Shown here: positions 33,935 through 36,635 of the stretch, piece after piece
How positions within the stretch are numbered: the stretch's first letter is position 1
Layout: every line of letters begins with the position of its first letter
DNA from: Candidatus Saccharibacteria bacterium UBA6209
Lineage (GTDB): Bacteria; Patescibacteriota; Saccharimonadia; Saccharimonadales; Saccharimonadaceae
Direction: 5' to 3'
DNA length: 64,000 nt
NCBI GenBank assembly: GCA_002421965.1
Contig: DISN01000005.1
Location: forward strand, 324-64,323
Translations under genes and position numbers: made by a program
The notes under the pieces: generated by a model
The model's input: the letters and a program-made list of their open reading frames with translations, nothing else
Database searches by the model: none
Told to the model about the DNA's origin: nothing

Positions 33935-34513
33935 CTAGAGGCGACTCTTGCTATGCTCCATACAATAGCGTAGCACTGCTGGTAGGTCCGGATCGTACCA
34001 TCCATTGAGCCTTATGGTGGACGTGGAATCTTTGTTGTGGGGTGCGTCAAAGACTACATGCCGCCAAGTCGTTTCTCCTGAGGTCTTGACCTCCGGTCTG
34101 TCATCAATCAGGGCGATCCCGTCGTATAGTTCTTTTTTGCTGTCAATAACGGCGCTTTTCATTGCCTCTCGCCCCAGGTGTTCTTCAATCCATTTCAGCT
34201 TTTCCTCTTTGCACCACTCGTTGGTGTGTAGTGGGGAGGAGCAGATTCTGGGCTCGTAGCCCAGGTCTTTAATTTTGTCCCAACCCTCAATAGCGCCATC
34301 AACTGGTGGCAGGTTACGGAAGAAGTTCTGCGATGCATGAAGTTTATTTATGACATCAGTATAGTTGGCCTCTGGGTAATCATCCCGGTAGTAGAAGTTG
34401 TTTCGCTCTCGAATAGGTATCTCTAGAGACTCTAAGTGGGCCTGTGTGGCGCCATCAAAATCAGCCAGCACGCCATCCATATCAACTAGGACAATGGGGT
34501 TTTCTCCGTTCAT
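33935..34513 (-). CDS. 5'(3')-deoxyribonucleotidase (NT5C, HAD family)
   Basis: DMDGVLADF, ICSSP, LIDDRP motifs; start set at ATG 34513 (TATAAT + 6 nt). Confidence 0.88.
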   Translation of the reverse strand: MNGENPIVLVDMDGVLADFDGATQAHLESLEIPIRERNNFYYRDDYPEANYTDVINKLHASQNFFRNLPPVDGAIEGWDKIKDLGYEPRICSSPLHTNEWCKEEKLKWIEEHLGREAMKSAVIDSKKELYDGIALIDDRPEVKTSGETTWRHVVFDAPHNKDSTSTIRLNGWYDPDLPAVLRYCMEHSKSRL

Positions 34514-34571
34514 GGGCGTATTATAGCACCTATCTTGCCTAAGTGTTATAATATATCCACCACACCACACA

Positions 34572-34713
34572 CCCTGACGTGTCTTGAACCGCGTAAAGCG
34601 TCCCTGGTGAATGGTTATTCATATCGTCTTCGGCTGAGCAGGTGAACGAAACGACACTAGCGTCGGACGGGCGAACAATCGACAAATCGTTTCTCTAAAA
34701 TAATTTTTGGAGA
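34572..34713 (+). ncRNA. Candidate structured cis-regulatory leader RNA, no family assigned
   Basis: Nested pairings found by eye, cUUCGg tetraloop, SD-sequestering hairpin; extended -10 TGTTATAAT at 34544-34552. Confidence 0.5.
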
Positions 34714-34989
34714 TTGTTTACTGTGAATAACGACATCTTATTAGACGAAAGAATTGAAGTAATAGCGGTTTTTGGCTCAGGCAATTCGCCCTGTCGACCG
34801 GTTAAATTCCGCCGCAAAAGTGGCAGGGAAGTGGTCATTAGCGAGATTGGCCTGGGGTTCCCGCTACCGCAAGGCTCTAGGATGATTCATGTGTTTGACG
34901 TAACAGACGGGCAGGCGGATTATCGGTTGGAATTTGATGCTACAACACTGACCTGGAAGCTGGTGAGAGAGGCGGATCACAGTGTCTAA
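34714..34989 (+). CDS. Small beta-rich protein coupled to a Y-family polymerase (candidate accessory subunit)
   Basis: Overlaps the polymerase start by 8 nt; GGAGA SD suits the in-frame GTG at 34723. Confidence 0.75.
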   Translation: MFTVNNDILLDERIEVIAVFGSGNSPCRPVKFRRKSGREVVISEIGLGFPLPQGSRMIHVFDVTDGQADYRLEFDATTLTWKLVREADHSV

Positions 34990-36205
34990 TATCAATACCG
35001 CTCGACCGATGATCATGCACATCGACCTCAACAGCTGTTTTGCGACAATTGAGCAGCAATCTCGGCCACTGTTACGTGGTCGGCCGGTGGCGATTGTGAA
35101 TCGTGCGACTGAACACACGGCAATTGTTACGGCCAGTTATGAGGCCAAGCAGCAGGGAATAGGGGTAGGGATGAAGCTGGCGACTGCCCGCCTACTCTGC
35201 CCTGCCCTTGTTGCGCTAGAAAGTGACCCGGTAAAATACCGGTTTGTTTACCGAAAACTTATGGAAATTTTACAGGATTATTCGCCATATGTGCGGATGA
35301 AAAGTATCGATGAAGGTTTGATTGATTTTGCTCAAAGTTCATTAGAAATTCGCCAGAGAGAACTGGCTGACATTGGGCGGGAGATCAAGCAGCGGCTTAG
35401 GGGTGAAATTGGTAATTATATGCGTTGCAACATTGGCATTGGCACTAACCGCTTTTTGGCTAAAACTGCTGCTGGGCTAAACAAGCCAGACGGTTTGACC
35501 GAGATCACGCATAAAAACTTGCGAGAGGTCTATCGTAGGCTTGGGCTTGAGGATTTGACTGGCATCGCCCATGGTTACGGCAAGCGGCTTCGAGAAGTCG
35601 GTATTACTACCCCACTAGAGTTTCTGGATGCAGATGAGCTGACGCTGGAGAAGCAAGTATTTCATGGCAAGCCAGGACGCGACTGGTACCAGCGACTACG
35701 TGGCTGGGAGGTCGACGCGATTGATTCTACTCTGCAAAGCGTTGGTCGGCAGTTTGTGCTCGATGAGCGAAATCTTGGCTATGACGAGGTTCTGCGACGG
35801 TTTCATGGGCTATGCGAGGATGTGGCAGCTAAGCTTCGGCACCAAAGTGTCTGGGCTAGGACGGTTAGGATATACGTTAAGTCCCACGGCAAATACTGGC
35901 AGTCGTTGCACCATGAAGGCCGAGCGTTTCATGATGAGTCGACAATATTTACGGCTGTTGAGAAAATGCTCAGAACTGCCCCGTTGCCAGCAATCGAGAT
36001 TGGCGTAACTTGTACAGACATAGTGTCTGAGCCGGATTCTCAGGCCGAGCTATTTAGTAACGAGGAGTATGTCGAAAATATAACTCAGGCGATTGATAAA
36101 ATAAATTTGTCTTGGGGTGATCATACGGTTCATTCGGCGGATACGTTGGGCCTAGCGAATCGGATGAAGCGCAAGGTACCGTTCGGGAGTACGAGGTATT
36201 TATAA
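34982..36205 (+). CDS. dinB: Y-family DNA polymerase (DinB/UmuC/PolY-like)
   Basis: HIDLNSCFA, SYEAK, SIDEG catalytic motifs; QAELF clamp motif; C-terminal AIDKINLSWG. Confidence 0.92.
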   Translation: MSNINTARPMIMHIDLNSCFATIEQQSRPLLRGRPVAIVNRATEHTAIVTASYEAKQQGIGVGMKLATARLLCPALVALESDPVKYRFVYRKLMEILQDYSPYVRMKSIDEGLIDFAQSSLEIRQRELADIGREIKQRLRGEIGNYMRCNIGIGTNRFLAKTAAGLNKPDGLTEITHKNLREVYRRLGLEDLTGIAHGYGKRLREVGITTPLEFLDADELTLEKQVFHGKPGRDWYQRLRGWEVDAIDSTLQSVGRQFVLDERNLGYDEVLRRFHGLCEDVAAKLRHQSVWARTVRIYVKSHGKYWQSLHHEGRAFHDESTIFTAVEKMLRTAPLPAIEIGVTCTDIVSEPDSQAELFSNEEYVENITQAIDKINLSWGDHTVHSADTLGLANRMKRKVPFGSTRYL

Positions 36206-36343
36206 TTATGCCTGGAGAATTGCGTCAATATCAGAGTCCTCGCCGTTGAGCTGAGCAAGTCTTGCCGCTAGCCTTCCAAGATTGAACTGCTCAATACGGG
36301 TGTTTACTTCTGGTGAAGTTGGTAATGTTTCTTGGCTTGTCAT
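36206..36343 (-). CDS. 45-aa small ORF absent from the ORF track
   Basis: MTSQETLPTSPEVNTRIEQFNLGRLAARLAQLNGEDSDIDAILQA; AAGGA SD; TTGCTT-N17-TACAAT promoter. Confidence 0.6.
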   Translation of the reverse strand: MTSQETLPTSPEVNTRIEQFNLGRLAARLAQLNGEDSDIDAILQA

Positions 36344-36635
36344 TTTTTGATCCTTTTTGTTTTTAATTTAACCAATAATTTCATTGTAGCACAAAATTGA
36401 CAAAAAAGCAATACCTTTTGCAAATAAAATAGGTATTTGCGCTATGACGGACAATTCTGTAATTATGGCTAGTGACTTATTGCAGGTTTACAACCTGCCG
36501 TTTATGGCATAGGGATATATTTTCACAACTACTACGGTAGCAAGCTCTACTAAAACAGTTACGAAGGCTCTTTTCCACTACGTCAGGGAATATTTGTGTT
36601 GATTTAGCTGATCATTCGATTGCTATAATGGGACT

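Follow-up and report, generated by a model that had tools for sequence, protein, structure and literature searches.

The window analysed here, i.e., a stretch of 64,000 nucleotides (nt) from a contig of Candidatus Saccharibacteria bacterium UBA6209 (Patescibacteria; host genome of 0.70 Mb, ~93 % complete), contains about 200 non-coding bases between the minus-strand gene of an NT5C-type nucleotidase (ATG at 34513) and two plus-strand genes sharing 8 nt: (i) an open reading frame (ORF) with GTG start for a conserved all-beta protein of 88 amino acids (aa; 34723–34989), and (ii) the gene for a Y-family (DinB/UmuC-like) DNA polymerase of 407 aa (34982–36205; IMS 3.4e-32, IMS_C 3.1e-10), which is also matched by NCBIfam models for DNA polymerase IV, but under their cut-offs. 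The non-coding bases harbour a conserved structured leader RNA of ~135 nt (34558–34697, plus strand), matched by the covariance model R1 (see below) with 93.3 bits (E 2.7e-17) and present in one copy in the genome. This leader is very probably a cis-regulatory structured RNA, and we lean towards regarding it as a new class of cis-acting leader, a riboswitch candidate that gates translation of the two-gene translesion-synthesis operon. A preliminary description, drawn by eye from the single sequence, had proposed a riboswitch-like leader at this place; the leader is real, together with its −10 element and the hairpin covering the Shine-Dalgarno (SD) sequence, while most of the helices drawn into it are wrong.

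Architecture of the leader and its promoter

According to the comparative model, the plus-strand RNA folds into two domains. Domain 1 is formed by P1 and P2 clamping a highly conserved 9-nt/10-nt internal loop, which is likely the sensor. The 5′ strand of P1 (34559–34567) comprises P1a (ACCA, 34559–62) and P1b (CACCA, 34563–67), and the 3′ strand (34605–34615) UGGUG, an AA bulge and UGGU; covariation and strand-swap tests support pairing of P1a with 34612–15 and of P1b with 34605–09. The same two kinds of evidence apply to P2 (34577–34594), a hairpin of variable length with the strands ACGUG (34577–81) and CGCGU (34590–94). Both halves of the internal loop are nearly invariant, i.e., J1/2 (34568–34576, consensus UACACACUG; alignments A2, A4 and A7), which the search pattern prescribed in 41 of the 71 loci compared below and left free in 30, and J2/1 (34595–34604, AAAGCGUCCC), which is kept as AAGCGUC[AC]C in divergent leaders of other families.

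A linker (34616–23, consensus UCAUUCA) separates P1 from P4. Domain 2 is one long hairpin composed of P4, a UU bulge, a 2-bp extension and P3, with GAAACG in its loop pairing with CGUUUC 15–20 nt further on. The 5′ strand of P4 (34624–34633: UCGUC, UU bulge, CG extension and G), represented by paired variants across the 71 leaders, and the covarying 3′ strand (34668–34674: CG extension and GGCGA) pair as 34624–28 with 34670–74 and, in the extension, as 34631–32 with 34668–69. The P3 hairpin (34634–34666), likewise covarying, is built of 34634–37 with 34663–66 and 34641–44 with 34655–58; its 10-nt loop contains the 5′ strand of the pseudoknot (GAAACG, 34648–34653). The 3′ strand of the pseudoknot (CGUUUC, 34688–34693) lies just 5′ of and extends into the sequestering hairpin (34692–34713), where it overlaps the anti-SD strand. 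This covariation-supported hairpin is present with the 9 bp originally proposed (34692–34700/34705–34713) and buries the SD sequence GGAGA (34709–34713) ahead of the GTG at 34723. Approximately 40 unpaired positions are nearly invariant across the 71 leaders. A conserved upstream ORF was not found, 41 of the 71 cores being devoid of any ATG.

Additional sequence occurs in two leaders: ~41 nt in the P1–P4 linker of L017 (3156–3321), and ~15 nt over the typical linker length as well as a P2 of 31 nt (~17 longer) in L052 (3476–3640). Since both match R1 over the full length, the linker and P2 sites tolerate added sequence.

The extended −10 element (TG-n-TATAAT; TGTTATAAT, 34544–34552, plus strand) was present as claimed, based on sequence reading and on the alignment of homologous loci: a −10-like hexamer occupies the equivalent place in all 68 loci with enough upstream sequence (the other 3 of 71 being cut by the 62-nt slice), and the TG is found in 30 of 71 loci. 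In the same 68 leaders, 15–20 nt separate the end of the −10 from the A closing P1b at the end of the P1 5′ strand. The transcript would begin at the foot of P1, only a few bases past the extended −10. Upstream of the −10, no conserved sequence was detected, and the homologous loci do not align.

The leader and both genes are covered by contigs from four metatranscriptome runs of one wastewater study, e.g., by one contig without differences across 34518–34781 and by another spanning exactly 34559–34707. These contigs report presence in an RNA library only, not start, strand or level, with DNA carry-over being possible; neither the contig ends at 34559, where other strains diverge upstream of P1, nor the uncovered parts are evidence of a transcription start.

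Searches with Infernal against Rfam 15 yielded neither a known family nor a match to 6S or another housekeeping RNA. At gathering thresholds, only four tRNAs were found in the whole window, and no match was obtained at E <= 10 for 34450–34800. The consensus-like member L022 gave two chance-level matches at E <= 10 (14.4 and 13.7 bits vs gathering scores of 100 and 55). In the literature, no description of the motif was found, although it might be listed in the supplements of large motif surveys, e.g., of PMC8040213, the main text of which makes no mention of Saccharibacteria, TM7, polymerase IV, translesion, DinB or Patescibacteria.

Homologous leaders, covariation and gene linkage

Homologues were collected with two patterns. 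The first, composed of three invariant blocks of the 3′ half, was applied to contigs representing one genome per species and retrieved 31 loci, of which 30 are true and one (L045) is a chance match inside a gene of a metagenome-assembled genome of Sphingomonadales. Since this pattern fixes P4 and the pseudoknot tail, metagenomes were scanned with a second pattern restricted to the 5′ half (J1/2, J2/1 and CUUCGG), which retrieved 49 loci, 48 of them true (one cut by a contig end) and one again a chance match (L078). The window locus and five relatives of the genus added six loci; in these five genus copies, conservation of the leader equals that of the proteins. The total of 82 usable loci corresponds to 71 unique leaders after removal of duplicates and cut copies, 41 from the metagenome pattern and 30 others. 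Two covariance models were derived, R1 with 129 positions and 26 pairs, and R2 for domain 1 alone with 54 positions. As RNAalifold recovered the structure only in fragments from plain MAFFT alignments, the leaders were parsed by anchors and the helices tested separately.

In a structure-free MAFFT alignment of the 71 leaders, 86.9 % of the cells of the modelled pairs are paired, compared to 76.4 % after shuffling, and the covariation score is 0.310 vs 0.123 (0 of 500 shuffles as high). Control structures with partners slid by 1–3 columns scored 0.055–0.088, and the alignment fitted to the covariance model reached 89.7 % paired cells and a covariation score of 0.365. Two-sided changes occur in four of the five pairs of P1b and in all five modelled pairs of P2, and the P3 pairs covary in both alignments. 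When partner strands were swapped between leaders, none of 2000 permutations was energetically as good as the cognate combination for P1 and P3, and none of 5000 for P2 (z = −16). In the SD hairpin (69 loci), cognate strands yielded −6.77 kcal/mol and swapped ones −5.17 kcal/mol, again with 0 of 5000 permutations as good. G·U cells (128) outnumber A·C cells (18), and therefore the folded molecule is the sense-strand RNA.

P4 is present as UCGUC:GGCGA in 61 leaders, UUGUC:GGCAA in eight, UCGUC:GACGA in one (a U·G to U-A change) and the mismatched UCAUC:GGCGA in one. The pattern left this helix unconstrained in the 41 metagenome leaders, and the double change to UUGUC:GGCAA is always two-sided; on the tree of both proteins (57 of the 71 rows, 14 being left out because the available polymerase was shorter than 300 aa), the exchange of C-G for U-A in the eight loci requires four events. 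The pseudoknot strands are GAAACG:CGUUUC in 65 leaders, GAACG:CGUUC in three, GGAACG:CGUUUC in two and GAAGCG:CGUUUC in one. In the three GGAACG/GAAGCG leaders the tail is unchanged and the A to G exchange opposite U retains a G·U pair, and in L055, L061 and L080 one A and one U are lost together (two of these three short forms are in the tree, as two events). Neither an unmatched combination nor an unmatched length of the pseudoknot strands was found among the 71 leaders. An alternative switch pairing of GGGCGA with a downstream UCGUUU was rejected, since the tails of the eight GGCAA variants do not change in step and many tails have the sequence ACGUUUC (by eye).

The covariation check thus supports a conserved structure, though in a fold different from the one drawn by eye. 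Five upstream helices of the latter (34574–79/34661–66, 34580–83/34653–56, CGC-GTAAA-GCG, 34603–06/34639–42 and GTGAAT-GGTT-ATTCAT), when mapped onto the 71 leaders, have 49.2 % of their cells paired vs 49.3 % in shuffles (336 of 500 pair as much) and a covariation score of 0.083 vs 0.079 (53 of 500 as high), and are chance pairings of the single sequence. The bases of the C(UUCG)G hairpin, also part of the preliminary description, are invariant and are assigned to P4 and its extension in the comparative model; since they never vary, the data cannot discriminate between this assignment and a tetraloop hairpin.

A homologue of the small ORF lies directly downstream of all 71 leaders and on the same strand throughout, starting 43–61 nt after the 3′ strand of P4 in 66 leaders and 97–213 nt after it in five. 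The polymerase gene follows in 65 of the 71 loci, and in the other six the contigs end within 430 nt. Insertions of 100–200 nt between leader and small ORF are observed in L055, L080, L089 and L111, some with a further hairpin or a short ORF that begins with MNDE... as does the genuine one; in L054, a first MNDE ORF breaks off at 18 codons, and 97 nt lie between P4 and the homologue. While the window's genes overlap, an extra ORF is located between small ORF and polymerase gene in several other loci, coding for 49 aa in L064, 53–61 aa in L002, L006, L023, L069 and L074, 74 aa in L035 and 171 aa in L072.

Among 61 related genomes, the small ORF is present in 15 including the window's own, and in 5 of 36 other genomes of the genus. 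R1 matches only six of the 61, all belonging to the genus and all carrying the small ORF in closely similar form (E <= 7e-36), and no R1 motif was found in any of the 61 that is devoid of the small ORF. R2 matches 17 of 151 genomes of the order including the window's own (the 16 further ones weakly). Fourteen of 17 other R2 places are located 168–497 nt upstream of small-ORF homologues with 27–59 % identity, a context not expected for chance matches. In a phylum-wide draw, R2 matches were confined to the window's family (4 of 151 including the window's genome), with none in the other 146 searched. In the distant gene pairs L007–L016, R1 produced no significant match (all E > 0.07) and R2 only that in L010 (E 9e-4; all others > 0.07), which is the same place as L124. 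In distant leaders of this kind, domain 1 is the only part to be recognised.

Twelve divergent leaders from other families of the order (L112–L124) keep ACACAC...AAGCGUC[AC]CU, i.e., domain 1, and differ in the middle part. By eye, they display a hairpin loop with GAACGG and, further on, CCGUUC, with matched variants in L116 (AAACGG:CCGUUU), L124 (UGACGG:CCGUCA) and L117 as well as L118 (CGAACGG:CCGUUCG), and a mismatch in L115. Riboswitch classes often have more than one kind of expression platform, and a second, transcriptional one may be present in these leaders. A further domain-1 match of 40 bits, L110 (G147:C1:30270–30321), has no small-ORF homologue in the following 822 nt and is accompanied ~30 nt downstream by a second minimal look-alike, AAGCAUACUUCGGUCACUGCUU; L110 could be a tandem or degenerate copy.

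Downstream of the polymerase gene, tilS and ftsH are encoded in the window, and this synteny recurs among the 38 loci with at least 900 nt beyond the polymerase gene (tilS in 31, ftsH in 22). The upstream neighbour varies, NT5C being found in 4 of 51 loci. The idea of a mobile cassette was discarded, since the tilS/ftsH side is held and only the upstream side varies; mobility is not claimed. In most other loci tilS follows closely behind the polymerase gene, unlike in the window, where 430 nt (36206–36635) from the polymerase stop to tilS contain no ORF of at least 50 aa on either strand and no Rfam match at gathering scores. The NT5C-like gene has its own extended −10 (TGCTATAAT, 34528–34520, minus strand), and since this box is only 6 nt from the ATG (34513–34511), the mRNA is probably leaderless. 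The −10 boxes of the two divergent promoters are ~20 bp apart.

Proposed switch and alternative explanations

The expression platform, from CGUUUC to the start codon, was folded for 69 leaders, i.e., those free of insertions. The minimum free energy hairpin pairing the SD uses at least two bases of the pseudoknot strand, most often UUC, in 68 of the 69. Blocking this strand weakens the mean energy of the hairpin from −6.4 to −1.9 kcal/mol, and the four core bases of the SD, all paired in 66 of 69 leaders, are all paired in only 4 of 69 under this constraint. Since the SD hairpin and the pseudoknot draw on the same bases, the two pairings compete, as they would in a translational switch. Mutual exclusion of the two looks to be favoured by the energies, a purely computational result.

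The pyrimidine run UUC-UCU would serve both in the pseudoknot and as 5′ strand of the SD-burying hairpin, and from this sharing the two structures would be mutually exclusive. An effector, most likely a small molecule accommodated in domain 1, would hold the aptamer fold and the pseudoknot; the sequestering hairpin would then lose 2–3 pairs, the SD would open, and the 88-aa protein and the polymerase would be made. Without effector, the hairpin would close and the operon be silent. Judged from nearest-neighbour energies, the folded, pseudoknot-formed state would be the ON state. The data show the conservation, the helices, the pseudoknot, the exclusive gene linkage and the strand overlap, while the direction of switching, the existence and nature of an effector and any link to DNA damage are inferred. 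RNA-level control of the polymerase operon via a buried SD, as suggested in the preliminary description, is strongly supported by conservation, covariation, the exclusive association with the gene pair and the conserved competition between pseudoknot and SD hairpin.

Among cis-regulatory RNAs, slight preference is given to an effector-sensing riboswitch that turns translation on. In agreement with riboswitches in general, a conserved structure supported by covariation is located in cis in the 5′ untranslated region (UTR) before a consistent gene set, with one copy in each genome. Several observations weigh against this interpretation. The regulon is a single operon providing no metabolic hint of a ligand, and if the effector were a protein, the 88-aa product of the first gene would come to mind at once. 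The OFF rather than the ON state might be the one stabilised, namely if pseudoknot and hairpin stack coaxially. Four of the five P4 pairs, both extension pairs and most of the pseudoknot hardly vary, and the search pattern had prescribed these blocks for 30 of the 71 leaders (and J1/2, J2/1 and CUUCGG for the other 41). The single-sequence fold of 34556–34730 (−44.5 vs −40.8 ± 3.8 kcal/mol; z = −0.98) is equalled by 34 of 200 shuffles. A strict hairpin with U-run after the CCGUUC-type strand is found in only 4 of 14 divergent leaders (vs 1–12 % of shuffles), while others look imperfect by eye.

The lack of a metabolic theme in a single-operon regulon would equally suit an autoregulatory leader, in which translation would be set by the 88-aa protein or the polymerase through binding to the conserved internal loop or to the pseudoknot, comparable to ribosomal-protein leaders. 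In all 71 loci the gene directly behind the leader codes for this small and highly conserved protein, leader and protein travel together in distant families, and the protein has a confident all-beta model without known relatives. Nothing, however, marks it as RNA-binding, and long, strictly conserved unpaired stretches together with a pseudoknot are more typical of metabolite aptamers; moreover, 9 of the 15 genomes with a small-ORF homologue yielded no R1 match, and of the 10 distant loci only L010 an R2 match. We regard binding of a protein as unlikely, though as deserving serious consideration. Even a weak hairpin (mean −6.4 kcal/mol) around the SD would suffice to limit expression, as expected from a constitutive structural 5′ UTR that stabilises the mRNA or fixes low translation of a dangerous enzyme without any sensing; for such a static brake, neither the ~40 near-invariant unpaired positions of the 71 leaders nor the overlap of alternative pairings in 68 of 69 would be needed, rendering this explanation improbable.

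The sequestering hairpin is short and rich in AU and GU as in known RNA thermometers, and temperature had been listed among the possible signals in the preliminary description. Melting with changes in temperature or Mg2+ concentration would, however, require the hairpin alone and leave the conserved two-domain fold of 130 nt unexplained, so that a thermometer or ion sensor appears very improbable. An independent small or housekeeping RNA upstream of the operon, or a mere chance fold, is hardly credible: besides the unremarkable energy of the single-sequence fold nothing speaks for it, whereas no Rfam family is matched, all 71 loci agree in strand and in distance to the ORF, the structure includes the SD, those of the 61 relatives that are devoid of the small ORF yielded no motif, and only the SD hairpin lies between motif and ORF in the 69 leaders (no scan was aimed at intrinsic terminators).

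Small protein, SOS context and relation to known systems

The 88-aa protein displays 73 % mean column identity (alignment A5, 54 sequences), and its AF2 model is all-beta with seven strands (pLDDT 90). No sequence match was found in Pfam, NCBIfam or PDB, and no Foldseek neighbour better than E 0.2; a profile search detected 341 cluster representatives at E <= 0.001. The model suggests that the protein may represent a small fold that has not been described so far and is associated with Y-family polymerases. An accessory factor of the polymerase and a regulator of the leader are candidate roles. DUF6504 (PF20114) was considered and dismissed, as it matches neither in the genome (E <= 10) nor in 54 family members (E <= 1). 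Two of ten remote relatives match DUF6504 below its cut-off (21.0 and 18.4 bits vs 24.2; Atlas lead score 0.86), and no paper on this domain was found by literature search.

LexA is the usual repressor of error-prone polymerases. In the 93.5 %-complete genome, no canonical LexA (winged helix-turn-helix plus S24 autoprotease) was found. The sole match to LexA_DNA_bind (PF01726) is an ORF of 112 aa ending after the winged helix (G000:C1:31563–31748; L098 1351–1689, minus strand), which may encode a non-cleavable LexA-like regulator; this ORF adjoins a tRNA-like sequence. The best score for Peptidase_S24 (PF00717) was 12.4 bits vs a cut-off of 23.3, absence not being proven at this completeness. 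By eye, no palindrome of the GAAC-N4-GTTC type was recognized in 34500–34560, a motif that may not be the operator of this lineage. From these sequences, the lineage seems to be devoid of the usual SOS repressor. RecA is encoded just beyond the window. The lack of an S24 domain over cut-off fits the idea that control has moved elsewhere. The case for RNA-level control replacing SOS repression, as proposed in the preliminary description, is circumstantial.

With respect to candidate effectors, c-di-AMP was set aside since no DAC domain was found in the genome (weak evidence against), and (p)ppGpp is a possible one because a RelA_SpoT protein is present. Tentatively, one may speculate that the leader represents the first riboswitch class controlling a translesion polymerase, the internal loop of which binds a metabolite of damage or nucleotide stress (such as a damaged base or nucleotide, a deoxynucleoside triphosphate or an alarmone), and that it acts as an RNA-based SOS substitute in Saccharibacteria.

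LexA-repressed Y-family operons are known from umuDC and dinB, and combinations of a small accessory gene with the polymerase gene, e.g., from yolD-uvrX in Bacillus. As in these operons, a small ORF precedes and overlaps the polymerase gene in the window, and expression is expected to be low until needed. In contrast, what is conserved here is not an operator but a structure within the transcript, downstream of the −10, and the small ORF matches neither YolD nor UmuD. With ribosomal-protein and other autoregulatory leaders, the present one shares a conserved structure directly before a small-protein gene with involvement of the SD, but its conserved unpaired content is larger than in most of them.

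The preQ1-II/III, SAM-II and NAD+-II riboswitches act on translation, with a pseudoknot that competes with or contains the SD. The leader resembles them in having a 5′-UTR aptamer, a loop-to-tail pseudoknot by the ribosome-binding site and conserved unpaired junction bases, with an alternative pairing deciding on access to the SD; it differs in its two-domain architecture and in the absence of any Rfam match for the leader region even at E <= 10. To our knowledge, a translesion polymerase operon is not known as target of a riboswitch. SD-linked pseudoknots of translational riboswitches are described in PMC11625349. According to PMC10556655, the 8-oxoguanine riboswitch is a variant of the guanine riboswitch. 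It provides a precedent for an RNA by which genes respond to a damage product of DNA or nucleotides with no protein as sensor. It is a purine-type three-way junction, to which the present leader has no match.

The leader is a concrete, testable handle on the control of an error-prone polymerase in ultrasmall, host-dependent Patescibacteria. It adds to the orphan riboswitch candidates one whose target is unusual, and a new signal of damage or stress could come to light with its ligand. It also represents a native regulatory part for a group where inducible expression tools are sought, riboswitches being named as promising for this purpose in a perspective (PMC11665869). The 71 sequences and the two covariance models define the motif well enough for submission as a new RNA family.

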